64,000 bases of DNA, taken from the NCBI RefSeq assembly GCF_058153355.1, contig NZ_CM177019.1. One strand, written 5' to 3'. A program made the position numbers and the translations under genes. Within the stretch, counting starts at the first letter, position 1. The number at the start of each line of letters is the position of its first letter. The notes under the pieces were generated by a model. The model was not told the origin of the DNA. It saw only the letters and a list, made by a program, of their open reading frames with translations, and made no database searches. Below, piece by piece: positions 2,966-62,782 of this stretch.

Positions 2966-4298
<1,333 letters not shown>

Positions 4299-4317
4299 AA
4301 CTTAGTTCGTTTTAAAG

Positions 4318-4342
4318 ATTCTGCAGACACTGTCTGCAGAAT
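4318..4342. repeat. Perfect 25-bp palindrome ATTCTGCAGAC-ACT-GTCTGCAGAAT between yhcH and the yhcG-like gene
   Basis: Read directly; same GCAGAC-N3-GTCTGC core as the three palindromes at 4829-4932. Confidence 0.9.
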
Positions 4343-4367
4343 TCGAAACCGCTGAAATTAACGGCGT

Positions 4368-5234
4368 CTATAGCCTTCCTCTAGCACCGCCTGTGTTCGA
4401 ACGAGTTCGGCGGTGGAAAAACAGCAGATCGACACGAAACCAGTTGTCATCAATGCGTAACCTTCGCTGCCGACCAACAAAGGCAAAATCATCCCCAAGT
4501 TCCAGCATTAAATCCATCAGGTGATTGATCAGCGCCTCCTCAAAATCGGATTCTGAGTATTCATCTTTCAATTCCAGAAATTCGAGCACAAAGGGATCGC
4601 GTATCGCCTGTTGCGGAAGAATATGCGTCTCGGCAGGAGCGTGTTGTTGCAGCATGGCTGATTTGTCATGTGACAGTAGTGTTCGCTCATAAAATTGGGT
4701 CGCAATTTGCCGCTCTAGCTGGCGGACAGACCAACCACAGCGGAGCGCCTCTTTTTCATAAAAGCTGCGGGCGTCAGCGTTTTTAACGGAAAGTAGACGG
4801 ACGTAGGTGGACCAAGGCAGGGGGAACGATTTGGCAGACAGCGTCTGCCAAATCTTTGCCGATGGGAATTCTGCAGACGGTGTCTGCGGAATTCCCAATG
4901 GTGTTAATTCGCCAGACACTGTCTGGCGAATTTCAACATGTTGAAAAAAGAGGTAAAAAAGCCTCATTTGGCGTAAGTTTTTTGCAGAGAACCCACGCTT
5001 ATACCTTAGACTTAAATCCTTTGATAGTCGCTTGATTAGCTGCGCACCATACGCAGCTCTGGCCTCGCCACCTTGTTCAAATTCGACAATTCGTCGGCCA
5101 ATTTCCCAGTACGTCGCGGTCATCAGCGCGTTAACGCTACGTACCGTTTCCGTTCGGGCGCTATCGACCAGATGAATAATGCCGTCGTGGATTTGCTGGT
5201 AGCCTGCTGTGGTTCCTTCTGAGAGCGATTCCAT
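4368..5234 (-). pseudogene. yhcG: YhcG-like DUF1016 (PD-(D/E)XK nuclease family) gene, apparently 3'-truncated and carrying an in-frame palindrome expansion
   Basis: 288-aa ORF with DUF1016-like N-terminal region (…TYWEIGRRIVE…, …NLRQMRLFY…, IWQTLSAK motif). It stops shortly after VDLLFFH, before the expected catalytic E-x-K segment. Only 69 bp separate its stop from the yhcH stop. Confidence 0.55.
4829..4945. repeat. Cluster of near-perfect palindromes inside the yhcG-like coding sequence (4829-4853, 4864-4896, 4906-4932, plus CAACATGTTG at 4934-4943)
   Basis: Read directly: TTTGGCAGAC-AGC-GTCTGCCAAA; GGGAATTCTGCAGAC-GGT-GTCTGCGGAATTCCC; AATTCGCCAGAC-ACT-GTCTGGCGAATT. Each unit encodes a variant of the IWQTLSAK motif in frame. 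Confidence 0.85.
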
Positions 5235-5417
5235 TATCTTTCCCTTTATATGGCGCAGTGTTGAATAATGGAATCAGCTATACGCCGGGCATCTGCCGGT
5301 AACAATCCAGATGTGCGTATTACATTGGTTTTCTTCAGATTATGCGAGGCGCTTTCCAGAACGAAAGGAGAATTTCAGCGCCGACTCTTTTCTGAGGAGG
5401 CGGCGCTGGGACAGAGC

Positions 5418-6848
<1,431 letters not shown>

Positions 6849-9800
6849 TTACTGCGCCTGCACGCGCAACTCTGCTGCGCTACGACTACGGTGACCCAGC
6901 AGTGCTTTTACATCACTGGACTTCGGTTTAACCAGCGCGAATTTCGTGGCGAAGGTTGACCAGTTCGCCAGAATCTCTTCACCGCGCTGGGAACCGGTAT
7001 GCTGCACATGCTCGGTGATAAGACCACGCAGATGCTCTTCATGGATCGCCAAATCGTCAACGCTTAAGACCTCGACCAGTTCCGGGTTAACGCGTTTGCG
7101 GAAATCGCCGCTTTCATCGAGAACGTAAGCGAAGCCGCCGGTCATGCCCGCGCCGAAGTTAACGCCGGTTTTACCCAGAATACAGACAATACCGCCCGTC
7201 ATATATTCACAGCCGTTGTCGCCAATGCCTTCTACCACGGTGATAGCACCGGAGTTCCGCACGCCGAAACGTTCACCCGCGCGGCCTGCGGCATACAGAC
7301 GACCACCGGTCGCGCCATACAGGCAGGTGTTGCCGATAATGCTTGCTTCATGGCTGCGGAAGGCGGAACCAACCGGAGGACGAATGGCGATTAAGCCGCC
7401 CGCCATGCCTTTACCGACATAGTCGTTGGCATCACCGGTCAGGTACAGTTCCACGCCGCCCGCGTTCCACACACCGAAGCTCTGGCCTGCGGTGCCGTTG
7501 AAGTACGCTTTGATCGGATCGGCTGCCAGACCCTGATCGCCGTGCGTCTGAGCGATATAGCCTGAAAGCGACGCGCCGACAGAACGGTCGGTGTTGCGAA
7601 TATCGAACCAGAAGGTTTTGCTCTGACGCTCATCGACAAACGGTTTTGCCTGTTGCAGCAACTGCGCGTTCAGCAGGCCATTATCAAACGGCGGGTTGTT
7701 TTCGGTACAGTAGAGCGCCTTACCTGGATGCGGCTCGGCAGTCTCCAGCAGCTTCGACAGCGCCAGTTTCTGCTGTTTGGCGGTGAAACCGTCCAGCTCT
7801 TTGAGCAGGTCGGTACGGCCAATCAGATCCACCAGGCGCGTTACGCCCAGTTGCGCCATCAGCTCGCGGGTTTCACGGGCGATAAACTCAAAGTAATTGG
7901 TCACTTTGAACGGCAGGCCGTGATAGTGATTCTTACGCAGCTTGTCATCCTGAGTTGCTACACCGGTGGCGCAGTTGTTCAGATGGCAGATTCGCAGGTA
8001 TTTACAGCCGAGCGCCACCATCGGGCCAGTGCCGAAGCCGAAGCTTTCTGCGCCGAGAATCGCCGCTTTGATGATATCGACACCTGTTTTCAGGCCGCCA
8101 TCGACCTGCAAACGGATCTTATGACGCAAGCCGTTGGCAACCAGCGCCTGTTGTGTTTCAACAAGCCCCAGTTCCCACGGGCAGCCTGCGTATTTCACCG
8201 ATGAAAGCGGACTTGCGCCGGTGCCGCCGTCATAGCCTGCGATGGTGATCAAGTCCGCATAAGCTTTCGCCACGCCAGTCGCGATGGTGCCAACGCCCGG
8301 TTCAGAAACCAGCTTCACGGAGATCATCGCTTTCGGGTTAACCTGCTTGAGGTCGAAAATGAGCTGCGCTAAGTCCTCGATAGAGTAGATATCATGGTGC
8401 GGCGGCGGAGAGATCAGCGTCACTCCGGGCACCGAATAGCGCAGTTTGGCGATGTAAGGAGTGACTTTATCGCCCGGCAACTGACCGCCTTCGCCCGGTT
8501 TCGCGCCCTGGGCGACTTTAATCTGAATGACGTCAGCATTGACCAGGTACGCCGGAGTAACGCCGAAGCGACCAGAAGCCACCTGCTTGATGCGCGACAC
8601 TTTGTTAGTGCCGTAGCGCGCCGGATCTTCACCACCTTCACCGGAGTTCGAGTTACCGCCGATGCTATTCATCGCTTCCGCCAGCGCCTCGTGGGCTTCC
8701 GGGCTTAACGCGCCGATAGACATCGCAGCGGTATCGAAGCGTTTAAACAGTTCGCTTGCCGGTTCAACATCGGCAATGTTGACTGCGTTTTCACCCGGCG
8801 TAATTGCCAGCAGATCGCGCAGCGTGGTTGCCGGACGCTCATTAACCAGCTTCGCGTATTCCTGATAGTCGCTGTACTCGCCGCTTTGTACCGCCTGTTG
8901 CAGTGTGCGCACGACGTCCGGGTTGTAGGCGTGGTATTCGCCACCGTGCACGTATTTCAGCAAGCCGCCCTGGCTGATGGGCTTACGCGCCAGCCAGGCA
9001 CGTTTCGACAGATTCAGCAGATCCTGCTGGAAGTCTTCAAAGCTTGCCCCACCAATGCGGCTAACCGCGCCCTGGAAGCACAGGCCCACTACATCATCGT
9101 GCAGACCGACCGCTTCAAACAGTTTCGAGCCGCGGTAAGACGCGATGGTGGAGATGCCCATTTTGGACATGATTTTGTACAAGCCTTTGTTGATGCCGTT
9201 ACGGTAGTTGAGCATCACGGTACGATAATCTTTGGCAATCGCGTGGGTGTCTACCAGGCGGCCCAGCGTTTCATAGGCCAGGTACGGATAAATAGCCGTC
9301 GCGCCGAAGCCCAGCAACACGGCGAAGTGGTGCGGGTCGCGGGCGCTGGCGGTTTCGACGATGATATTGGCATCGCAACGCAGGCTTTGATCGACCAGAC
9401 GAGTCTGGATCGCGCCAACCGCCATCAGAGCCGGAACCGGCAGGCGATCTTTAGCGATATTCCGGTCAGAAAGCACCAGCAGCACGGTGCCGCTACGCAC
9501 CATCTGCTCTGCTTTGTCGCACAGCTCTTTGACCGTCGCTTCGAGCGTGGTTTTAGTGACGTCAAAGGTGATATCCAGCGTATTTGCGCGGTAGTGCTCC
9601 TCTTTCATCGTCGTGAGCTGTTTGAAATCGGAGTAGAGCAGAATCGGCGATTTAAAGCTTAAACGGTGCGCCTGGCCTTCTGCTTCACAGAAGACGTTCA
9701 TTTCACGCCCGATGCTGGTGGCGAGCGACATAACATGCGCTTCACGTAGCGGGTCGATTGGCGGGTTAGTGACCTGCGCAAACTGCTGGCGGAAGTAGTC

Positions 9801-11309
9801 GTAAATAATGCGCGGCTGGCTGGAGAGCACGGCGAATGGGGTATCATCGCCCATCGAACCGACGGCTTCCTGACCGTTTTCACCCAGTACGCGAATTACG
9901 GAGTCCAGCTCTTCCGCGCTGTAGTTAAACTGTTTCTGGTAGCTGGCAAGTGTGTCGTCGTCCAGTTCGCGGCTACCCACTTCTTCATCGGGCAGATCTT
10001 CAAACGGTACCAGACGGCGGACGTTTTTCTCCATCCACTCTTTATATGGATGGCGGCTTTTCAGATCGTCATCGGTTTCTGCCGAGTGCAGAATACGCCC
10101 ACTGCGGGTGTCGATAACCATTAGTTCGCCTGGCCCCACGCGGCCTTTTTCGACTACTTCGTCAGGCTGATAATCCCAGATACCGACTTCAGAGGCGCAG
10201 GTGATGAGCTTATCTTTGGTGATGACGTAGCGCGCCGGACGCAGACCGTTACGGTCGAGGTTACAGGCAGCAAAACGACCATCGGACATTACGATGCCCG
10301 CCGGGCCATCCCACGGCTCCATATGCATGGAGTTAAAGTCGAAGAACGCGCGCAGCTCCGGGTCCATATCCGGGTTGTTCTGCCAGGCGGGTGGCACTAA
10401 CAGACGCATGGCGCGGATGATATCCATCCCGCCCGCCAGCAGCAGTTCCAGCATGTTATCCATGGAACTGGAGTCAGAGCCGGTTTCGTTGACGAACGGC
10501 GCGGCGTCGTGCAGGTCAGGGATCAGCGGTGTCTGGAATTTATAGGTACGCGCTCGCGCCCATTGGCGGTTACCGGTGATGGTGTTGATTTCACCGTTAT
10601 GCGCCAGGTAGCGGAACGGCTGCGCCAGCGGCCAGCGCGGTACGGTATTAGTGGAGAAGCGCTGGTGGAACAGGCAGATGGCCGATTCCAGACGCAGGTC
10701 CGCGAGGTCCAGGTAGAAGCGCGGCAGATCCGCCGGCATACACAGACCTTTATAGATGTTCACCAGATTCGACAGGCTACAGACGTAGAAGTCTTTGTCA
10801 GCTTCGAGACGCTTTTCAATACGGCGGCGGGCGATAAACAGACGGCGCTCCATATCGCGCGGACGCCAACCTGCCGGGGCGTTCACAAAAATTTGCTCAA
10901 TGCGTGGCAGAGAGGAGAGGGCGATTTCACCCAGCACGCCTTCGTTAGTGGGGACATCACGCCAGCCGACAATCGACAACGTTTCGCGTTGCAGCTCTTC
11001 TTCAACGATGCGGCGTGCGGTCGCGGCGAGTTCAGGATCTTTATTCAGGAAAAGCATCCCGACGGCGTAGTTTTTCGCTAAACGCCAGCCTCGCTCCTGC
11101 GCAACAATGCGAAAAAAGCGATCCGGTTTTTGTAACAGCAAGCCGCAACCGTCACCGGTTTTACCATCGGCGAGAATCGCGCCACGGTGCTGCATGCGGG
11201 CCAGTGCGTGTATTGCAGTACGCACTACCTTGTGGCTAGGTTCGCCTTCTATGTGGGCGATCAGGCCGAAACCACAGTTATCCCTCTCAAGGGATTTATC
11301 GTACAACAT
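6849..11309 (-). CDS. gltB: Glutamate synthase large subunit
   Basis: ORF 6849..11417; conserved start [15 protein letters not shown] (propeptide followed by the amidotransferase Cys) at ATG 11309, giving 1486 aa. Confidence 0.9.
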
Positions 11310-11417
11310 ATCGTGAACCTCCCCCAGGCTCTGCGGGAACCCCACTTCCGAACCGCTGCGCACGGGCACAGAAAGAGCGTGGCGACGGGGTTTGCGTTTC
11401 ATACGCGCGCCTCGCAT

Positions 11418-11984: not shown

Positions 11985-12914
11985 ATGCAGTTACAGAAAT
12001 TAGTCAATATGTTTGGTGGTGATCTCACCCGTCGTTATGGGCAAAAGGTGCATAAGCTGACGCTGCACGGCGGTTTTAGCTGCCCTAACCGTGACGGTAC
12101 CATCGGGCGTGGTGGCTGCACATTCTGTAATGTTGCCTCGTTTGCCGATGAAGCGCAGCAGCATCATTCCATTGCCGAGCAACTGGCGCACCAGGCGAAT
12201 TTAGTTAACCGCGCTAAACGCTATCTGGCCTACTTTCAGGCGTATACCAGCACCTTTGCGGAAGTTCAGGTGCTGCGTTCTATGTATCAGCAGGCGGTGA
12301 GCCAGGCCAATATTGTCGGTTTGTGTGTTGGTACCCGCCCGGACTGCGTGCCGGATGCGGTGCTGGATCTGCTTTGCGAATATAAGGACCAGGGCTACGA
12401 AGTGTGGCTGGAGCTGGGGCTACAAACCGCCCACGACAAAACGCTGCATCGCATCAATCGCGGTCATGATTTTGCCTGCTATCAGCGCACGACGCAGCTG
12501 GCGCGTGAGCGCGGGCTGAAGGTGTGTTCTCACTTAATTGTCGGCCTGCCTGGCGAAGGGCAGGCTGAATGTTTGCAAACGCTGGAGCGAGTGGTTGAAA
12601 CCGGCGTGGACGGCATAAAGCTGCATCCGCTACATATAGTAAAAGGCAGCATTATGGCGAAAGCCTGGGAAGCGGGGCGTTTGAACGGTATTGAACTGGA
12701 CGATTACACGCTCACTGCCGGAGAAATGATTCGCCATACGCCACCGGAAGTGATCTACCACCGCATTTCCGCCAGCGCCCGTCGCCCGACGCTGCTTGCT
12801 CCGCTGTGGTGCGAAAATCGATGGACGGGAATGGTCGAGCTGGATCGCTATCTGAATGAACATGGCGTACAGGGATCGGCGCTGGGACGTCCGTGGCTAC
12901 CTCCAACGGCGTAG
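11985..12914 (+). CDS. yhcC: Radical-SAM family protein YhcC
   Basis: ORF 11952..12914 (TTG-extended in track); conserved start MQLQKLVNMFGG at ATG 11985; CxxxCxxC-type Cys cluster (CPNRDGTIGRGGCTFC). Confidence 0.8.
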   Translation: MQLQKLVNMFGGDLTRRYGQKVHKLTLHGGFSCPNRDGTIGRGGCTFCNVASFADEAQQHHSIAEQLAHQANLVNRAKRYLAYFQAYTSTFAEVQVLRSMYQQAVSQANIVGLCVGTRPDCVPDAVLDLLCEYKDQGYEVWLELGLQTAHDKTLHRINRGHDFACYQRTTQLARERGLKVCSHLIVGLPGEGQAECLQTLERVVETGVDGIKLHPLHIVKGSIMAKAWEAGRLNGIELDDYTLTAGEMIRHTPPEVIYHRISASARRPTLLAPLWCENRWTGMVELDRYLNEHGVQGSALGRPWLPPTA

Positions 12915-13009
12915 GCCATTGAGGGGAATTCCGCATTTCTCACACAATTTATAACGTAACTGTCAGAATTGGGTATTATTGGGGCAGGTTGTCGTGAAGG
13001 AATTCCCTA

Positions 13010-15346
13010 ATGAAGCAAATTCGTCTGCTGGCGCAGTATTATGTTGACCTGATGATGAAGTTAGGTCTGGTGCGCTTCTCAATGTTGCTGGCGCTGGCCC
13101 TCGTCGTTCTTGCCATTGTGGTACAAATGGCAGTGACCATGGTGCTGCATGGTCAGGTCGAAAGCATTGATGTTATTCGTTCTATCTTCTTTGGTTTGCT
13201 GATTACGCCGTGGGCGGTCTACTTTCTATCGGTGGTCGTTGAGCAATTGGAGGAGTCACGACAACGTCTGTCACGGCTGGTGCAAAAACTGGAGGAGATG
13301 CGCGAGCGCGATTTGAGCCTCAACGTTCAGTTAAAAGATAATATTGCCCAGCTAAATCAGGAAATTGCCGTTCGTGAAAAAGCGGAAGCAGAACTGCAGG
13401 AAACCTTCGGCCAACTGAAAATTGAAATTAAAGAGCGCGAAGAGACACAAATTCAGCTCGAGCAGCAATCCTCATTCTTACGTTCCTTCCTTGATGCTTC
13501 ACCCGACCTGGTTTTTTATCGTAACGAAGATAAAGAGTTTTCCGGCTGTAACCGCGCGATGGAGCTGCTGACCGGAAAAAGCGAAAAACAACTGGTTCAT
13601 TTAAAACCTGCTGATGTTTACTCGCCGGAAGCTGCCGCGAAAGTTATTGAAACCGATGAAAAAGTATTTCGTCATAATGTGTCTCTGACCTATGAACAGT
13701 GGTTGGATTATCCCGACGGACGCAAAGCCTGCTTTGAAATCCGTAAAGTGCCGTACTATGACCGCGTGGGTAAACGTCACGGTTTAATGGGTTTTGGTCG
13801 CGACATTACCGAGCGTAAGCGGTATCAGGATGCGCTTGAACGCGCCAGCCGCGACAAAACGACGTTTATCTCCACCATCAGTCACGAATTGCGTACACCG
13901 CTGAACGGTATCGTCGGCCTGAGCCGCATTTTGCTGGATACTGAACTTACCGCTGAGCAGGAAAAATATCTCAAAACAATCCATGTTTCGGCCGTCACGC
14001 TGGGGAATATCTTCAACGATATTATTGACATGGATAAGATGGAGCGGCGCAAGGTCCAGCTTGATAATCAGCCAGTTGATTTCACCAGCTTCCTTGCCGA
14101 TCTGGAAAATCTCTCCGCATTGCAGGCGCAACAGAAAGGGTTGCGCTTTAATCTGGAACCGACGCTGCCATTACCGCATCAGGTCATTACTGATGGGACG
14201 CGTTTACGGCAGATCCTGTGGAACCTCATCAGTAACGCCGTCAAATTTACCCAGCAGGGCCAGGTTACCGTGCGCGTGCGCTACGATGAAGGCGATATGC
14301 TGCATTTTGAAGTGGAAGACTCTGGTATCGGCATTCCGCAGGATGAGCTGGATAAAATCTTCGCCATGTATTACCAGGTGAAAGACAGTCATGGCGGTAA
14401 ACCTGCCACTGGCACCGGTATTGGTCTGGCCGTTTCTCGTCGTCTGGCGAAAAATATGGGCGGCGATATTACGGTTACCAGCGAACAGGGCAAAGGTTCA
14501 ACCTTTACGTTGACGATCCACGCACCGTCGGTAGCAGAAGAGGTTGATGATGCGTTTGATGAAGACGATATGCCTTTACCGGCGCTGAATGTGCTGCTGG
14601 TGGAAGACATTGAACTGAACGTGATTGTCGCACGCTCTGTGCTGGAAAAATTAGGTAACAGCGTTGATGTCGCCATGACCGGCAAGGCGGCGCTGGAGAT
14701 GTTTAAACCGGGCGAATACGACCTGGTGTTGCTGGATATTCAGTTGCCAGATATGACCGGGCTGGATATCTCTCGTGAACTGACGAAGCGTTATCCGCGC
14801 GAGGATTTACCGCCGCTGGTGGCCTTAACCGCTAACGTGCTGAAAGACAAACAAGAGTACCTCAATGCTGGAATGGATGATGTGCTGAGTAAGCCGCTTT
14901 CTGTTCCGGCGCTAACCGCGATGATCAAGAAATTCTGGGATACCCAGGATGATGAGGAGAGTACGGTGACGACAGAAGAGAACAGTAAATCAGAAGCATT
15001 GCTCGATATTCCCATGCTGGAACAGTATCTCGAACTTGTAGGACCGAAGCTGATCACCGATGGGTTAGCGGTGTTTGAGAAGATGATGCCGGGATATGTC
15101 AGCGTGCTGGAGTCGAATCTGACGGCGCAGGATAAAAAAGGCATTGTTGAGGAAGGACATAAAATTAAAGGTGCGGCGGGGTCAGTGGGGTTACGCCATC
15201 TGCAACAGCTGGGTCAGCAAATTCAGTCTCCTGACCTTCCAGCCTGGGAAGATAACGTCGGTGAATGGATTGAAGAGATGAAAGAAGAGTGGCGTCACGA
15301 CGTAGAAGTACTGAAAGCGTGGGTGGCAAAAGCTACTAAAAAATGA
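13010..15346 (+). CDS. arcB: Aerobic respiration control sensor histidine kinase (hybrid kinase with receiver and HPt domains)
   Basis: 778-aa ORF; N-terminal TM segments, H-box (SHELRTPLN), receiver domain and C-terminal HPt; adjacent to ArcZ. Confidence 0.95.
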   Translation: MKQIRLLAQYYVDLMMKLGLVRFSMLLALALVVLAIVVQMAVTMVLHGQVESIDVIRSIFFGLLITPWAVYFLSVVVEQLEESRQRLSRLVQKLEEMRERDLSLNVQLKDNIAQLNQEIAVREKAEAELQETFGQLKIEIKEREETQIQLEQQSSFLRSFLDASPDLVFYRNEDKEFSGCNRAMELLTGKSEKQLVHLKPADVYSPEAAAKVIETDEKVFRHNVSLTYEQWLDYPDGRKACFEIRKVPYYDRVGKRHGLMGFGRDITERKRYQDALERASRDKTTFISTISHELRTPLNGIVGLSRILLDTELTAEQEKYLKTIHVSAVTLGNIFNDIIDMDKMERRKVQLDNQPVDFTSFLADLENLSALQAQQKGLRFNLEPTLPLPHQVITDGTRLRQILWNLISNAVKFTQQGQVTVRVRYDEGDMLHFEVEDSGIGIPQDELDKIFAMYYQVKDSHGGKPATGTGIGLAVSRRLAKNMGGDITVTSEQGKGSTFTLTIHAPSVAEEVDDAFDEDDMPLPALNVLLVEDIELNVIVARSVLEKLGNSVDVAMTGKAALEMFKPGEYDLVLLDIQLPDMTGLDISRELTKRYPREDLPPLVALTANVLKDKQEYLNAGMDDVLSKPLSVPALTAMIKKFWDTQDDEESTVTTEENSKSEALLDIPMLEQYLELVGPKLITDGLAVFEKMMPGYVSVLESNLTAQDKKGIVEEGHKIKGAAGSVGLRHLQQLGQQIQSPDLPAWEDNVGEWIEEMKEEWRHDVEVLKAWVAKATKK

Positions 15347-41827: not shown

Positions 41828-43157
41828 TCGTAAATATTTCGGTACCGATGGGATTCGTGGTCGTGTAGGGGATGCGCCGATCACCCCTGATTTTGTACTT
41901 AAGTTGGGTTGGGCCGCCGGTAAAGTGCTGGCGCGCCACGGCTCCCGTAAGATCATTATTGGTAAAGACACGCGTATTTCTGGCTATATGCTGGAGTCAG
42001 CACTGGAAGCGGGTCTGGCGGCTGCGGGCCTTTCCGCACTCTTTACAGGCCCGATGCCTACACCTGCCGTGGCTTATCTGACGCGTACCTTCCGCGCAGA
42101 GGCCGGGATTGTAATTTCTGCATCGCATAACCCATTCTACGATAACGGCATTAAATTCTTTTCTATTGACGGTACTAAGCTGCCGGATGCAGTTGAAGAA
42201 GCCATCGAAGCGGAAATGGAAAAAGAGATCAGCTGTGTTGATTCGGCAGAACTGGGTAAAGCCAGCCGTATCGTTGATGCTGCGGGTCGCTATATCGAGT
42301 TTTGCAAAGCCACGTTCCCGAACGAACTTAGCCTCAGTGAACTGAAGATTGTGGTGGATTGCGCAAATGGCGCGACTTATCACATCGCGCCGAACGTGCT
42401 GCGTGAACTGGGGGCGAACGTTATCGCTATCGGTTGTGAGCCGAACGGCGTAAACATCAATGCCGAAGTGGGGGCAACTGATGTTCGTGCGTTACAGGCG
42501 CGCGTACTGGCTGAAAAAGCAGATCTTGGTATCGCCTTTGACGGTGACGGCGACCGCGTGATTATGGTTGACCATGAAGGCAATAAAGTCGATGGCGACC
42601 AGATTATGTATATCATCGCGCGCGAAGGTCTGCGTCAGGGCCAACTGCGTGGTGGCGCGGTGGGTACATTGATGAGCAACATGGGGCTGGAACTCGCCCT
42701 GAAACAGCTAGGAATTCCGTTTGCTCGTGCGAAAGTGGGCGATCGCTACGTACTGGAAAAAATGCAGGAGAAAGGCTGGCGTATCGGTGCAGAGAATTCT
42801 GGTCATGTGATCCTGCTGGACAAAACCACAACCGGTGACGGCATCGTTGCTGGTTTGCAGGTGCTGGCGGCGATGGCGCGTAACCATATGAGCCTGCACG
42901 ACCTTTGCAGTGGTATGAAAATGTTCCCGCAGATTCTGGTTAACGTGCGTTACACCGCAGGTAGTGGCGATCCGCTGGAGCATGAATCAGTCAAAGCTGT
43001 AACCGCAGAAGTTGAAGCGGCGCTGGGTAGCCGTGGACGTGTGCTGTTGCGTAAATCCGGCACCGAACCGTTAATTCGCGTGATGGTGGAAGGCGAAGAC
43101 GAAGCGCAGGTGACTGAATTTGCACACCGCATCGCCGATGCAGTAAAAGCCGTTTAA
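41820..43157 (+). CDS. glmM: Phosphoglucosamine mutase
   Basis: 445-aa ORF; active-site serine motif ISASHNP; overlaps folP 3' end. Confidence 0.95.
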
Positions 43158-43384
43158 CGCGTTATATAACTGTCTAAAAAGGCGGCGATTGTCGCCTTTT
43201 TTCTCGGTGAACATATCGGTTTTGCTGTTTTTTTCCGCAGTTGATACAATGCGATAAAATTGCCCTTGCGAAGGCCATTCGCTTTGGTTAGTATTCACAC
43301 CCGCTTCAGTGGGAAAGATTAGAAATTCCCGCTTTATTGGTTGAAGCATTGGTACGCGGCAACTCCGCAAGGAACAGGTTGATT

Positions 43385-43717
43385 ATGTACGAAGCTCTTT
43401 TAGTAGTTTTCCTTATTGTGGCAATTGGCCTTGTTGGTCTGATCATGCTGCAGCAAGGTAAAGGCGCTGATATGGGAGCCTCCTTCGGAGCAGGCGCTTC
43501 CGCTACGCTGTTTGGTTCAAGTGGTTCTGGTAACTTCATGACCCGCATGACGGCGCTGCTGGCAACGTTATTCTTCATCATCAGTCTGGTGCTGGGTAAC
43601 ATCAATAGCAACAAAACCAATAAAGGTAGTGAATGGGAAAACCTGAGTGCACCGGCCAAAACCGAACAAACTCAGCCAGCTGCTCCGGCCAAGCCGACCA
43701 GCGATATCCCGAACTAA
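43385..43717 (+). CDS. secG: Protein-export membrane protein SecG
   Basis: ORF 43337..43717; conserved start MYEALLVVFLIVAIGLVGLIMLQQGKG at ATG 43385; 110 aa. Confidence 0.9.
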   Translation: MYEALLVVFLIVAIGLVGLIMLQQGKGADMGASFGAGASATLFGSSGSGNFMTRMTALLATLFFIISLVLGNINSNKTNKGSEWENLSAPAKTEQTQPAAPAKPTSDIPN

Positions 43718-43730
43718 AAAGTAGTATCCG

Positions 43731-43817
43731 TGCCGAGGTGGTGGAATTGGTAGACACGCTACCTTGAGGTGGTAGTGCCCAATAGGGCTTACGGGTTCAA
43801 GTCCCGTCCTCGGTACC
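43731..43817 (+). tRNA. leuU: tRNA-Leu (anticodon GAG)
   Basis: GCCGAGGTGGTGGAATTGGTAGACACGCTACCTTGAGGTGGTAGTGCCCAATAGGGCTTACGGGTTCAAGTCCCGTCCTCGGTACCA; cloverleaf with long variable arm, anticodon loop UUGAGGU, encoded CCA end. Confidence 0.9.
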
Positions 43818-43826
43818 AAATTCCAG

Positions 43827-43853
43827 AAAAGAGACGCTGAAAAGCGTCTTTTT
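43827..43853 (+). terminator. Rho-independent terminator after leuU
   Basis: AGACGCT-GAAA-AGCGTCT followed by TTTTTT. Confidence 0.8.
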
Positions 43854-44274
43854 TCGTTTTGGTTCTGGTCTGAGGAATGGTTGTCAGGTATCTGTATCTC
43901 GTCCAGTTGCTTTACTCGTAGCTGGTACTTTGAAACGATGGTGCCGGTACGCCTTAGTTATAAACTTTTCCCTACTGCTGACATAATTGGCACTTTATTG
44001 TGTCAACTCCAGTTCCGGTACGAATACGGATATGTTTACTTCTCGATAAACCATCCTGCTCCTGTCAGTATAACTACTGATGGCTACGTTCTGCGTAATG
44101 TTTAGAGACGCATTGATAATGTTATTTAATTACTGAGAACAATGGCCGCATCATTTAAAAAGAAAAAACTAACAGTGTTTCGGTCTGATATGGATCAGCG
44201 TTGAAAAACATGTCTGATATAAAATTGAACATTGTTGATAATTGTTTATATTGGTTGTGAACTTGGATTTCTGG

Positions 44275-45900
44275 ATGACAGTATTCAACAAATTTGTTAG
44301 AAGTTTTAAATCTCATTGGTTGTTGTATCTTTGTGTTATTGTTTTTGGTATTACGAACTTAGTCGCCTCTTCCGGAGCGCATATGGTTCAGCGATTGCTG
44401 TTCTTCGTTCTGACCATCCTAGTTGTTAAACGTATATCATCCCTTCCGCTTCGCCTGCTTGTTGCCGCACCATTTGTGTTACTGACAGCGGCAGACATGA
44501 GTATTAGCCTCTATTCATGGTGTACCTTTGGTACAACTTTCAATGATGGATTTGCGATTAGTGTGCTGCAGAGTGATCCGGATGAAGTTGTCAAAATGCT
44601 GGGGATGTATATCCCTTATCTATGTGCTTTTGCCTTTTTATCCCTTCTTTTTTTGGCAGTAATAATAAAATATGATGTTTCCTTGCCGACGAAAAAAGTG
44701 ACAGGAATATTATTGCTGATTGTCATTTCGGGCAGTTTATTTTCCGCTTGTCAATTTGCTTATAAAGATGCAAAAAATAAAAAAGCGTTCAGTCCATATA
44801 TACTAGCGTCGCGATTTGCTACCTATACACCGTTTTTCAATCTCAATTATTTTGCTTTAGCAGCGAAAGAGCATCAAAGATTACTCTCAATTGCAAACAC
44901 GGTGCCGAATTTTCAATTATCAGTCAGGGATACAGGTATTGATACCTACGTGTTGATTGTGGGGGAGTCTGTACGTGTCGACAATATGTCTTTGTATGGA
45001 TATACACGCTCTACGACACCGCAAGTCGAAGCACAAAGAAAACAGATCAAACTGTTTAATCAAGCAATAAGCGGTGCACCTTACACTGCGCTGTCGGTTC
45101 CCCTTTCTTTAACTGCTGATTCTGTTTTGAGTCATGACATTCATAATTACCCGGACAACATTATTAATATGGCTAATCAAGCAGGATTTCAGACTTTCTG
45201 GCTAAGCTCGCAATCCGCTTTTCGGCAGAATGGTACAGCAGTTACCAGTATCGCCATGCGCGCCATGGAAACAGTCTATGTCAGAGGATTTGATGAATTG
45301 TTGTTGCCGCATTTATCGCAAGCGTTACAGCAAAAGACGCAGCAAAAGAAACTGATTGTTCTTCATTTAAATGGAAGCCATGAACCGGCTTGTAGCGCCT
45401 ATCTGCAATCCAGCGCCGTGTTTCAACCACAGGACGATCAGGATGCCTGCTATGACAACTCCATTCATTACACAGATAGTTTGCTAGGTCAGGTTTTTGA
45501 ATTATTAAAAGATCGCCGAGCCTCGGTCATGTATTTTGCCGACCATGGCCTGGAACGCGACCCGACGAAGAAGAACATTTATTTTCATGGAGGCAGGGAG
45601 GCCAGCCAGCAGGCATATCATGTTCCGATGTTTATCTGGTATAGCCCCGTTCTTGGGGATGGCGTGGATCGCACAACGGAAAACGATATCTTTTCCACTG
45701 CTTACAATAATTACCTTATTAATGCGTGGATGGGGGTAACAAAGCCGGAACAGCCGCAAACGCTGGAGGAAGTGATTGCACACTATAAAGGAGACTCACG
45801 GGTTGTAGATGCAAACCATGATGTTTTCGATTTTGTGATGCTAAGAAAGGAGTTTACTGAGGATAAGCAAGGTAACCCCACCCCTGAAGGGCAGGGTTGA
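44275..45900 (+). CDS. yhbX: Inner-membrane sulfatase-domain protein, phosphoethanolamine-transferase (EptA/EptB/OpgE) family
   Basis: ORF 44242..45900; conserved start MTVFNKFVRSFKSHWLL at ATG 44275; N-terminal TM helices then sulfatase-like domain; strongly AT-rich relative to neighbours. Confidence 0.75.
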   Translation: MTVFNKFVRSFKSHWLLYLCVIVFGITNLVASSGAHMVQRLLFFVLTILVVKRISSLPLRLLVAAPFVLLTAADMSISLYSWCTFGTTFNDGFAISVLQSDPDEVVKMLGMYIPYLCAFAFLSLLFLAVIIKYDVSLPTKKVTGILLLIVISGSLFSACQFAYKDAKNKKAFSPYILASRFATYTPFFNLNYFALAAKEHQRLLSIANTVPNFQLSVRDTGIDTYVLIVGESVRVDNMSLYGYTRSTTPQVEAQRKQIKLFNQAISGAPYTALSVPLSLTADSVLSHDIHNYPDNIINMANQAGFQTFWLSSQSAFRQNGTAVTSIAMRAMETVYVRGFDELLLPHLSQALQQKTQQKKLIVLHLNGSHEPACSAYLQSSAVFQPQDDQDACYDNSIHYTDSLLGQVFELLKDRRASVMYFADHGLERDPTKKNIYFHGGREASQQAYHVPMFIWYSPVLGDGVDRTTENDIFSTAYNNYLINAWMGVTKPEQPQTLEEVIAHYKGDSRVVDANHDVFDFVMLRKEFTEDKQGNPTPEGQG

Positions 45901-45907
45901 TGTCGAA

Positions 45908-47266
<1,359 letters not shown>

Positions 47267-47299
47267 TTAATTAACTGATGATGAGCCTGGATTTCCGCT

Positions 47300-47350
47300 C
47301 TAACTGAATTTTTATGCAAAATAAATGAGTTTTCATTTAATCATCTTTTA
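47300..47350. promoter_or_regulatory. Putative ArgR operator (ARG boxes) in the argG promoter region
   Basis: AT-rich TGAATTTTTATGCA … ATGAGTTTTCATTTA resembling paired ARG boxes upstream of argG; assignment by pattern only. Confidence 0.4.
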
Positions 47351-47476
47351 TCGGTGACAGGAAGAGTTTAGTGTGTTTTTTGTAAAATAATGCGCTTAAG
47401 GAGGAGCAGTAGAGGGCAAAAGTATTCGACAAACGAAAGTGAACTGGATATTCATTCACGCGATTAGCAATAAATG

Positions 47477-47506
47477 TTGACAAAATGTGGCGTGGATCAC
47501 TATAAT
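47477..47506 (+). promoter_or_regulatory. Sigma-70 promoter (upstream metY promoter): TTGACA-18 bp-TATAAT
   Basis: Consensus hexamers TTGACA (47477-47482) and TATAAT (47501-47506) read directly. Confidence 0.6.
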
Positions 47507-47554
47507 GACTGCAGATTTTACGTCCCGTCTCGGTACACCAAATCCCAGCAGTAT

Positions 47555-47583
47555 TTGCATTTTTTACCCAAAACGAGTAGAAT
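47555..47583 (+). promoter_or_regulatory. Sigma-70 promoter immediately upstream of metY: TTGCAT-17 bp-TAGAAT
   Basis: Hexamers at 47555-47560 and 47578-47583; -10 is ~15 nt before the tRNA 5' end. Confidence 0.65.
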
Positions 47584-47598
47584 TTGCCACGTTTCAGG

Positions 47599-47675
<77 letters not shown>

Positions 47676-47797
47676 CTTTCCCTTAGAGTCCTTTTTCAAA
47701 TATACTGTGAAGACTTCGGCCTTCGTAGTGGGATTTGAAAAAATCCTTCTGGAAAGTGCTCCAGACCGCAGTTGCGGTTATAGGGTTCAGTTATATA

Positions 47798-47822
47798 AAG
47801 CCCCGATTTATCGGGGTTTTTT
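47798..47822 (+). terminator. Intrinsic terminator/attenuator between metY and rimP
   Basis: AAAGCCCCGA-TTTA-TCGGGG followed by TTTTTT. Confidence 0.65.
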
Positions 47823-47881
47823 GTTATCTGACTACAGAATAACTGGGCTTTAGGCCCTTTTTTTATGTCTTGGGGGTGGGC

Positions 47882-48334
47882 TTGTCCACATTAGAGCAAA
47901 AATTAACAGAGATGATTACTGCGCCAGTTGAGGCCCTGGGTTTTGAACTGGTTGGCATCGAGTTTATTCGCGGTCGCACATCCACACTGCGCATCTATAT
48001 TGATAGTGAAGATGGCATCAATGTTGATGATTGTGCTGATGTGAGCCACCAGGTAAGTGCTGTGCTGGATGTCGAAGATCCCATCACCGTGGCTTATAAC
48101 CTGGAAGTCTCCTCACCGGGTCTCGATCGCCCACTGTTCACGGCTGAACACTACGCCCGTTTCGTCGGAGAAGAGGTGACTCTGGTTCTCCGTATGGCGG
48201 TACAAAACCGTCGTAAATGGCAGGGCGTTATCAAAGCGGTAGACGGTGAAATGATCACAGTTACCGTCGAAGGTAAAGATGAAGTGTTCGCGCTGAGTAA
48301 TATCCAGAAGGCGAACCTGGTTCCCCACTTTTAA
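47882..48334 (+). CDS. rimP: Ribosome maturation factor RimP
   Basis: ORF 47870..48334; conserved N-terminus (M)[22 protein letters not shown] begins at TTG 47882; 150 aa. Confidence 0.8.
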
Positions 48335-61314: not shown

Positions 61315-61322
61315 TTGAACGA

Positions 61323-61347
61323 GCCGGATGAGCAGTTTTCATCCGGC
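61323..61347. terminator. Hairpin between mtr and the convergent 176-aa ORF
   Basis: GCCGGATGA-GCAGTTT-TCATCCGGC; no strong T-run, possibly bidirectional. Confidence 0.5.
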
Positions 61348-61373
61348 AATATTCCATAGTGCGCGCGAGGTAA

Positions 61374-61904
61374 TCAAATATATCCTTGTTTATTATAAAG
61401 TTCTTCGGCAAGTGCTTCCCCATGTTCATCGAAAAATGCATTGGCGATCTTTAAATTATTCTCCTCAGGATTTGCCGTTATCCTGCTACCATTGGAATCA
61501 AATTCGAGCGCGATGGCGATCTCCGACCCCCACCAGTAATCATAAATTAGCGCAAAATTATTTTCCCCTGGCGTAATAAATTTCTCGATGCCTCGCACAC
61601 AGGCCATGAGTGGTATGAAGATTTCATAGCTCTCTGAGAGAAATATATGATCCATCGTGACTATCTGTGTTTCTTTATTAAAGTTGATATGTTCGGCATA
61701 AATATTCTTTTCACTTTCACCAGAATTACAAGCTGCAAGATTGTTAAGCATTTTTGCAGGATCGCCGTACAACCGCTGCTTCTCGATAAACCATGGCAAC
61801 CAGTCGTCATGGTCTTTGATATTTGTTGCTGGTGAATGGAAAAACTTCTCGAGGTTACTCTCGGTAATATGTGTATGAAGAAAAAAGGAAGCCGGTTCAC
61901 TCAT
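61374..61904 (-). CDS. Hypothetical protein (176 aa), no recognisable domain; first gene of the AT-rich islet between mtr and yhbW
   Basis: Uninterrupted ORF in AT-rich DNA with a plausible start context; no signal peptide seen; Trp/Tyr-rich (IYDYWWGSEIAIALEFD). Confidence 0.55.
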   Translation of the reverse strand: MSEPASFFLHTHITESNLEKFFHSPATNIKDHDDWLPWFIEKQRLYGDPAKMLNNLAACNSGESEKNIYAEHINFNKETQIVTMDHIFLSESYEIFIPLMACVRGIEKFITPGENNFALIYDYWWGSEIAIALEFDSNGSRITANPEENNLKIANAFFDEHGEALAEELYNKQGYI

Positions 61905-62062
61905 AATGATTTTCTCTGGTAATAAGTCGATTTGTTCATTTCTCTGTTTGGCGATGATAAAACGATGACTATTTTATAAAAGTACAGAACTGGACCTTTC
62001 ATCTATTTCCTATCATAGGAAAATATATACTTGAACTGGATCAGAATAAGCGGAATACGAAA

Positions 62063-62782
62063 ATGGGGTGTAAAGGATTACTCGCTATTGTATTGTTGAG
62101 CCTGTTTATCGCTTTTATTTTAAAAATTTTCTGGCCCACCCCGCACGATGAACATCTTTTCCTGCCCGTTGAAAAACCTTTCGTATCGTCTTTAAAAATC
62201 ATTCGCCCCGGCGACCAGTTATTTATCCGCATTCTGAAAGCGGAAGATAAGCTGGAACTGTGGGCAAGCATCAACAACAAGCCTTACGAACTCTATAAAA
62301 CCTGGACTATATGCGCGTGGTCTGGTGGCTTAGGGCCAAAACACAAACAGGGGGATGGTAAAAGCCCGGAAGGTTTTTATGCCACCAACAAAGGGTTGCT
62401 TAACCCAAACAGCCGCTATCATCTGGCATTTAATATTGGTTACCCGAATGCTTACGATCGGGCAAACGGCTACACCGGTGATTTCATTATGGTTCACGGA
62501 AACTGCGTTTCGGCGGGCTGCTATGCCATGACCGATGCTGGTATTGAAGAGATTTATCAACTGGTGGCGCAGGCGCTGAATAGCGGACAGAAGAGCGTGC
62601 CGGTGCATATCTTCCCGTTTGCGATGAACGACGAAAATATGCGCCAGGCGCAGGCATGGCCGGAATATAATTTCTGGCGTATGTTGAAGCCCGGCTATGA
62701 TTACTTTGAAAAAAATCGCCGATTGCCAACCATCAACGTTGAAAACCGGCGTTATAAAATCAGCCCAACAACTCTTCCTTAA
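62063..62782 (+). CDS. YafK/DpaA-like L,D-transpeptidase-fold (YkuD) protein with N-terminal membrane anchor or signal
   Basis: 239-aa ORF; hydrophobic N-terminus ([18 protein letters not shown]); YkuD catalytic signature [14 protein letters not shown] (His … Ser-x-Gly-Cys) and YafK-like motifs [32 protein letters not shown]. Confidence 0.65.

Follow-up and report, generated by a model that had tools for sequence, protein, structure and literature searches.

The window analysed here is a 64,000-nucleotide stretch of an Escherichia chromosome (NCBI RefSeq assembly GCF_058153355.1, contig NZ_CM177019.1), and the element in question is yhbX, a gene for a putative phosphoethanolamine transferase, together with the AT-rich segment that carries it. 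The gene order in the window is ftsH-folP-glmM-secG-leuU-yhbX-argG(-)-metY-rimP-nusA-infB, and the aligned genomes likewise place yhbX between the tRNA gene leuU and the convergent argG. The gene is named in RefSeq, and the region is the already known E. coli gene yhbX (b3173 in strain K-12), the two proteins being 98.5% identical; since yhbX is an annotated y-gene, little is new in its identity. A preliminary description of this DNA had placed yhbX directly 3' of a tRNA-Leu gene, which ARAGORN and the list of open reading frames (ORFs) bore out. The spacer of ~380 bp given there needs correction: the distance from the end of the tRNA to the ATG is 456 bp, and 382 bp is the distance from position 43860 to the first in-frame TTG. 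The ORF holding yhbX extends over 44242-45900, with the annotated ATG inside it.

Table 1. Positions in the window of yhbX, its cassette, its predicted domains and active-site codons, and the adjoining features.
Feature	Position	Strand	Basis or remark
leuU, tRNA-Leu (anticodon GAG)	43732-43818	+	ARAGORN; Rfam tRNA model, 52.8 bits; K-12 annotation leuU
leuU intrinsic terminator	43826-43855	+	Terminator scan; 13-bp stem, then T-run
yhbX cassette ("allele A"), 2046 bp	43861-45906		From leuU terminator to argG stop
AT-rich non-coding leader/promoter region of yhbX	43861-44274	+	
yhbX coding sequence, 541 amino acids	44275-45900	+	ATG at 44275, TGA at 45898-45900
Predicted N-terminal membrane domain, residues ~1-206	44275-44892	+	AlphaFold2, Kyte-Doolittle; most AT-rich part of the gene
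Predicted periplasmic sulfatase/alkaline-phosphatase-fold catalytic domain, residues 224-466	44944-45672	+	Pfam PF00884; alignment to EptA
Codon of E231	44965-44967	+	
Codon of Thr271, predicted nucleophile	45085-45087	+	
Codon of H369	45379-45381	+	
Codons of D423-H424	45541-45546	+	
GC-rich hairpin within the last yhbX codons	45874-45898	-	argG-sense strand, 10 nt past the argG stop; no U-tract
argG	45908-47251	-	Convergent with yhbX; stop codons 7 bp apart

The cassette stands out by its base composition. Its GC content is 0.419, as against 0.516, and essentially no other 2-kb stretch of the window is poorer in GC; 0.2% of 2-kb intervals are as GC-poor, and each of these overlaps the cassette. 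The spacer has a GC content of 0.384 and yhbX one of 0.427, with a GC content at third codon positions (GC3) of 0.415, the first 200 codons being at 0.355 and the remainder at 0.45. The GC3 of the 48 other ORFs of the window is 0.556 +/- 0.042, which sets yhbX at z = -3.3, and its codon-usage distance from the pooled other genes (z = +2.9) exceeds that of every other gene longer than 900 bp. This profile confirmed the preliminary statement that gene and spacer are markedly AT-rich.

The AT bias peaks in the membrane domain, as would be expected if yhbX were an ancestral core gene that is AT-rich only through hydrophobicity and low expression; its presence in 95% of E. coli genomes and a synonymous diversity within E. 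coli that does not exceed that of the flanks would suit the same explanation. The composition of its relatives speaks against it. The K-12 genes eptA, eptB, eptC and opgE match yhbX in architecture and in GC content at second codon positions (0.36-0.39), yet their GC3 is 0.56-0.61 (yhbX, 0.42). Because four paralogs of the same architecture have normal GC3, membrane-protein composition does not account for the bias. The AT bias of yhbX sits at silent positions and is a property of the nucleotides, not a by-product of hydrophobic residues. The high-affinity motif of H-NS (TCGATAAATT, at most two mismatches) was considered as well and set aside; the cassette holds 4 of its 76 matches and is not enriched in it.

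Alleles of the cassette were surveyed in 5426 complete E. coli genomes. The allele of the window was present in 5166 of them, and the ~4.8% without yhbX at this site mostly carry another cassette. Comparison with strain FDAARGOS_944 gave sharp breakpoints: homology stops at 43860, just after the sequence CGTTTT that ends the conserved stretch past the leuU terminator, and is found again from 45907 on, within the final codons of argG. Between these points FDAARGOS_944 holds an unrelated AT-rich segment of 1168 bp (GC 0.37; positions 12162-13329 of its locus), whose product, encoded on the opposite strand, is a 317-residue protein with an N-terminal Xre/Cro-type helix-turn-helix (HTH) and an uncharacterised C-terminal part. 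This HTH cassette was found in 237/5426 genomes. A third allele, from assemblies labelled E. fergusonii and nine E. coli genomes, fills the same gap with a gene for a 531-residue YhbX-like protein that is 69% identical to YhbX, the two segments being homologous over the entire cassette.

The sequences of this third allele and of the window differ strongly within the gene, with a nonsynonymous divergence (dN) of 0.21, a saturated synonymous divergence (dS) of ~3 and a dN/dS of 0.07, whereas their flanks are 99.3-99.8% identical and the flanking genes have a dS of 0.007-0.07. Ancient alleles within near-identical flanks point to replacement by homologous recombination and not to divergence in place. 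The left breakpoint is common to all three alleles, and the leuU terminator sequence is shared by Salmonella, Citrobacter and all three; the last two argG codons are allele-specific, and the argG terminator is retained, as the ancestral state, in the HTH allele and lost in the yhbX allele. A variable segment that runs from 42 bp past the tRNA to the last argG codons fits an exchange through homologous flanks and not site-specific integration, and the alleles would be swapped by homologous recombination in the conserved sequence on either side. These comparisons mark the cassette as foreign and exchangeable, with at least three alternative alleles in E. coli that share the same two breakpoints.

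Beyond E. coli, a scan of genome contigs for the exact leuU sequence yielded 16 loci. At the loci that still have argG as neighbour, those of Salmonella enterica subsp. diarizonae, Citrobacter amalonaticus and Citrobacter sp. MGH106, leuU is separated from the argG stop by 180-212 bp, a gap that holds REP-like (repetitive extragenic palindromic) sequence and a clean argG terminator; the yhbX cassette was absent from this gap in the Salmonella and the two Citrobacter genomes. The preliminary description had named universal presence of yhbX in Enterobacteriaceae at this site, together with base composition and codon usage like those of the flanks, as what would refute it. Empty sites in Salmonella and Citrobacter, together with the E. 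coli genomes lacking yhbX, show that its presence is variable. Among 1.84 billion representatives clustered at 50% identity, no protein outside Escherichia was more than 50% identical to YhbX, and the nearest full-length relatives, at 42-48%, are patchily distributed (Buttiauxella, one Pectobacterium, Mixta gaviniae and the betaproteobacterium Microvirgula). With empty sites in related genera, other cassettes at the same site and such distant relatives, descent as a core gene is largely refuted, and we regard it as extremely improbable.

The surroundings of the cassette are evidently a recombination mosaic, to judge from the uneven identities along the window. Over 47.5 kb, the window and K-12 share 97.4% identity. 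In its first 25 kb the best E. coli genomes reach 98.5-99.0%, gltB (6849-11417) shows only ~96.3% identity to every one of 5416 E. coli genomes except one, and a 1-kb part of glmM (42001-43000) has 92.7% identity to K-12. Against other E. coli, glmM and argG (segment 46001-47000 for the latter) show a dS of 0.17-0.32, above the 0.05-0.09 of yhbX. The 11-13 kb around yhbX (38.2-50.9 kb) match two E. fergusonii-labelled assemblies at over 99% identity; one of these has the E. coli-type yhbX and the other the 531-residue allele.

How the cassette first arrived is a separate question. The preliminary description had taken the position next to a tRNA gene as a "classic integration-site signature", a reading that the analysis did not support. 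The cassette adjoins a tRNA gene, is atypical in composition and varies in presence among strains, as do tRNA-integrated islands; an integrase and attachment (att) repeats were not found. No integrase ORF lies between leuU and argG or elsewhere in the window, the 20-nt 3' end of the tRNA has no second copy within three mismatches in the 64 kb, and neither direct nor inverted repeats nor att-like copies turned up in a search of the window. The segment also begins past the terminator. With neither integrase nor att repeat, a tRNA-integration origin is unproven.

Relatives of yhbX do occur in mobile surroundings. A tblastn search of plasmid records found a YhbX paralog of 64% identity on pRHB40-C01_2 (CP057032.1), a 62-kb circular molecule without a typed replicon whose record classes it as a non-mobilizable plasmid. 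Its genes include those for a tyrosine integrase, an H-NS paralog, EAST1 and K88-like fimbriae, besides three AlpA/Gp2-type modules and genes of the YeeU/CbtA toxin-antitoxin, CP4 and antirestriction types; with this content of island genes it resembles an excised island rather than a plasmid. In strain ECE204 the paralog lies within an island bounded by tRNA-Phe and a tyrosine integrase, and it is full length in 455/5426 E. coli genomes. Several other "plasmid" matches proved spurious, their PLSDB records being chromosome-sized (4.8-4.9 Mb). Islands at pheU, pheV and selC have been reported to carry "YjgX or YhbX" transferases (PMC6174562). The Buttiauxella massiliensis homolog (40-42% identical) stands among restriction-modification, TIR, WYL, EcsC, AlpA and YfjJ-type genes.

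The island-borne paralog of the pheV-type islands is alike in its full-length similarity, its AT richness (GC 0.44) and the conservation of all motifs; it differs in lying in integrase-bearing islands and in that its homology to the window is restricted to coding sequence. This paralog and the Buttiauxella homolog indirectly support an island origin of yhbX. As a separate observation, about 1400 E. coli genomes hold only a remnant of ~100 bp, annotated as "hypothetical protein" and 83-85% identical to the 3' end of the island paralog, which suggests frequent truncation of the island-borne gene. A 74-codon ORF in the spacer of the window (43881-44105) was considered as a counterpart of the small ORF upstream of the island paralog and dismissed, as the two have no mutual similarity.

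In its strongest form, an island origin would make yhbX the eroded remnant of an island that was once integrated site-specifically at leuU and has lost its integrase, att sites and other cargo. The position 3' of the tRNA, the atypical composition, the integrase islands that hold the closest mobile relative, the neighbours of the Buttiauxella gene and the literature on the pheU, pheV and selC islands are in keeping with it. The lack of an integrase and of a tRNA 3'-end copy across the 64 kb, a variable segment that starts after the tRNA terminator and not within the tRNA, and the end of the paralog's homology at the limits of the coding sequence are not, and the identical breakpoints of three alleles fit flank-mediated homologous replacement. 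We consider the eroded-island explanation unlikely. A foreign origin of the cassette is supported, whereas the mechanism of tRNA integration is unproven.

The product of the cassette was examined by domain searches and structural modelling. The sulfatase domain of Pfam (PF00884) matches residues 224-466 at 2e-55. An AlphaFold2 model built from an alignment of 47 homologs (mean predicted local distance difference test score, pLDDT, 93; predicted template modelling score, pTM, 0.91) featured a helical membrane domain, two bridging helices and an alpha/beta catalytic domain. The membrane domain has five hydrophobic helices plus periplasmic and bridging ones, the modelled helices being at residues 2-13, 15-29, 34-52, 57-85, 113-132 and 140-167, with the bridging helices at 174-206; the Kyte-Doolittle profile shows five hydrophobic segments in the N-terminal domain. 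By sequence, the best solved relatives are E. coli EptC (5zzu) and full-length Neisseria meningitidis EptA (5fgn). The top Foldseek matches to the model were full-length EptA and MCR-1 and the catalytic domain of EptC, with TM-scores, normalised to target length, of 0.71-0.78 to the catalytic domains of EptC, EptA and MCR-1.

When the active sites were aligned, E231, T271, H369, D423 and H424 of YhbX fell on E240, T280, H383, D452 and H453 of N. meningitidis EptA. The zinc ligands and the nucleophile are intact in YhbX (E231, T271, D423 and H424, plus H369 and H438). In the 47-homolog alignment these five aligned positions are invariant or at least 90% conserved, and E104 of the membrane domain is invariant. 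YhbX thus shows the membrane domain, the sulfatase-fold domain and the catalytic set of the phosphoethanolamine transferase family ("YhbX/YhjW/YijP/YjdB family"), and by sequence and model it has the complete architecture of an EptA/MCR-1-type enzyme. The assignment to the EptA/EptB/OpgE sulfatase-domain family made in the preliminary description was upheld by the Pfam match, the full-length fold match to EptA and MCR-1, and the conserved catalytic set.

A gene that was silent or decaying, or that encoded a hydrolase and not a transferase, would have no present-day role; the K-12 label "putative hydrolase", a literature that offers no clear phenotype and reports deletions only in broad screens, and an AT-rich region with weak promoter matches could be read in this way. 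The substitution pattern is of a different kind. Against six E. coli-type sequences (five complete E. coli genomes and K-12), the dN/dS of yhbX is 0.06-0.14, and it is 0.07 across the synonymously saturated alleles; a value of 0.29 was obtained against the near-identical strain N96, from which the window differs by just two nucleotides. The housekeeping flanks, at 0-0.06, are under stronger constraint than yhbX. In whole-gene alignments none of the eight other E. coli-type sequences has a broken ORF, and the only one that differs in length is that of strain HH35, with a 9-bp in-frame deletion (538 residues; 4078-5694 of the HH35 locus). With the catalytic residues all conserved besides, the gene is clearly under purifying selection and appears functional, and its lack of a role is, in our view, very unlikely.

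The position of YhbX within the family was then assessed with the NCBIfam models. It scored 92-118 bits with the EptA models (cut-offs 561 and 660), 102 bits with the EptB model (cut-off 493) and 120-138 bits with the CptA models (cut-offs 404 and 900), and the MCR-1 to MCR-13 models also stayed far under their curated cut-offs. Since YhbX lies under all the specific cut-offs, it is no member of the EptA, EptB or CptA/EptC groups and no ortholog of a named enzyme. The search of the 1.84 billion representatives returned 117 matches at E <= 1e-30. Of the top 150 representatives, some 60 are closer in score to YhbX than to any other E. coli paralog, and the next subfamilies beyond this YhbX-like set are OpgE-like and EptC-like. 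These comparisons place YhbX in a small subfamily of its own, apart from EptA, EptB, EptC/CptA and OpgE.

Two other candidate relatives were discarded. The K-12 pseudogene yjgX near leuX is only ~29% identical and hence belongs to a different subfamily, which removes it as the island counterpart. Fragments of YhbX "74-88% identical" to the query, from the library of representatives, looked like intermediate orthologs. One of their source contigs (Logan SRR3359616) has 497 differences from the window over 3 kb, of which 472 are C-to-T; differences so nearly all of one kind identify the contig as bisulfite-converted E. coli. Assemblies of this kind give fake "divergent" proteins that form separate clusters in protein libraries.

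By analogy with EptA and MCR-1, Thr271 would attack phosphatidylethanolamine at its phosphate, on the periplasmic side of the inner membrane, a covalent phosphoethanolamine-enzyme intermediate would form with release of diacylglycerol, and the phosphoethanolamine would then be passed to an envelope glycan. In the library of papers that was searched, we found none that assigns a substrate to YhbX, in agreement with the preliminary description; yhbX is encountered there as a neutral marker or insertion site, in broad screens, or as a gene with "no function established".

A clue to the acceptor comes from Pectobacterium sp. B1J-3, whose homolog is 45.5% identical and scores 473 bits to YhbX against 115 to EptC. 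Its gene lies in an operon of the order waaQ, GT4, waaP, YhbX-like, GT8 and waaZ-like, all on one strand with gaps of 36-75 bp, and the call of waaP, the heptose-I kinase, is firm (415 bits; cut-off 170). Because this homolog directly follows waaP in a core operon, we tentatively propose the inner core of lipopolysaccharide (LPS) as the acceptor of YhbX, perhaps at a position in its heptose/phosphate region. Alternatively, the acceptor might be a non-LPS glycan of the periplasm, such as the osmoregulated periplasmic glucans that OpgE modifies, or another polysaccharide or a protein. Among the characterised E. coli paralogs OpgE scores highest (123 bits; EptC, 107), OpgE-like sequences form the nearest neighbouring subfamily, the automatic annotation of the Joint Genome Institute (JGI) names members "glucan phosphoethanolaminetransferase", and the majority of homologs are unlinked to LPS genes. 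The only informative neighbourhood, on the other side, has a member right after waaP in an LPS-core operon, and the identity to OpgE is just ~29% and limited to the catalytic domain, so a non-LPS acceptor seems improbable to us.

Taken as a whole, the view of yhbX as an intact gene of EptA/MCR-1 type in an accessory AT-rich cassette is very probable. Several points weigh against parts of it. The loci of the leuU scan took in no Escherichia other than E. coli (E. albertii, E. marmotae, E. ruysiae or E. whittamii), the K-12 annotation remains "putative hydrolase", and the literature search found neither biochemical nor genetic support. EptC already serves the heptose-I phosphate in E. coli. The hint of the LPS core comes from one homolog, the others examined standing alone among unrelated neighbours, and by BLAST score a glucan modifier, OpgE, is the nearest characterised paralog in E. 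coli. Silencing of yhbX by H-NS is a guess from AT content alone. A more far-reaching proposal, which we offer as doubtful, is that a small, hypervariable locus for the envelope occupies the leuU-argG gap. Its two ancient yhbX alleles, both under purifying selection, and the HTH cassette would be shuffled by way of near-identical flanks between backgrounds of E. coli and of assemblies labelled E. fergusonii, the YhbX subfamily would decorate the LPS inner core beside the phosphate added by WaaP, and the polymorphism would be kept by phage or host-immune pressure on the cell surface.

In the yhbX leader, weak sigma-70-like sites were located at 44214-44252, with promoter-like matches at 9/12 positions. 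All reading frames of the spacer are interrupted by stops, and a 2-bp indel separates strains. An Rfam scan of 43000-48000 gave no match in the spacer, its only hits being the two tRNAs and the rimP leader. A sigma-32 peak has been reported in the yhbX-leuU spacer by systematic evolution of ligands by exponential enrichment, SELEX (PMC5493296), and argG-yhbX is among the overlapping convergent transcripts detected by RNA-seq (PMC12288877). The hairpin at the end of yhbX has an 11-bp stem, and the 83-nt RNA around it folds at -18.5 kcal/mol (z = -1.5), which is not exceptional. Its sequence, GGGCAGGG, is intergenic in the 531-residue allele but encodes the disordered C-terminal tail GNPTPEGQG in the yhbX of the window.

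Three further features of the window were recorded. Upstream of the tRNA-fMet gene metY (47599-47675) lies a perfect 12/12 sigma-70 consensus promoter (47477-47506), and the rimP leader was matched by Rfam at 102 bits (47764-47864). Between mtr and yhbW there is an accessory insertion of 1.45 kb (61315-62759), found in 183/5426 E. coli genomes and absent from K-12 and N96. It holds an AT-rich ORF of 176 residues on the minus strand (GC 0.40), without a Pfam match, and a gene for a 239-residue L,D-transpeptidase with a YkuD domain; an insertion of at least 99% identity was found only in the goat isolate R32_14_1F.

YhbX is the sole K-12 paralog of the phosphoethanolamine transferase family without an assigned substrate, and its relatives govern polymyxin resistance and envelope charge. 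The present analysis narrows its function to that of an apparently intact, selected enzyme from a small, mobile, AT-rich subfamily, one member of which stands beside waaP in an LPS-core operon; this homolog makes the question of the substrate testable. The new detail is modest and consists of the exact boundaries of the cassette, its three alleles, the paralog carried by islands and the homolog beside waaP. Three alleles at one fixed site make a tidy case of accessory-gene exchange via core flanks, though not a new kind of biology.

Among known systems, PMI3040 of Proteus mirabilis is a member of the YhbX subfamily (33-34% identity, 94% coverage) whose gene stands alone; the authors who described it state that no function can be hypothesised. 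The lipid A transferases EptA (PmrC) and MCR-1 share the full-length fold of YhbX (5fgn and 9nww, TM-score 0.62-0.65), with their threonine nucleophile and zinc ligands aligned, but their identity to YhbX is 18-25% and nothing was found that points to lipid A as its acceptor. OpgE (YbiP), the transferase of the periplasmic glucans, has the top BLAST score among the E. coli paralogs, at ~29% over the catalytic domain; it differs in that the likeness covers only ~300 residues, in its normal composition and in its ompX-mntS locus. EptC/CptA (YijP of E. coli), the heptose-I-phosphate transferase of the LPS core, differs from YhbX in identity (24%) and in the normal GC3 of its gene (0.61). It shares the two-domain architecture and the catalytic residues and is the best match of solved structure to the catalytic domain of YhbX (5zzu, 1.3e-22; 6a82, TM-score 0.77), and the homolog next to waaP hints that YhbX may act on the same part of LPS as EptC.

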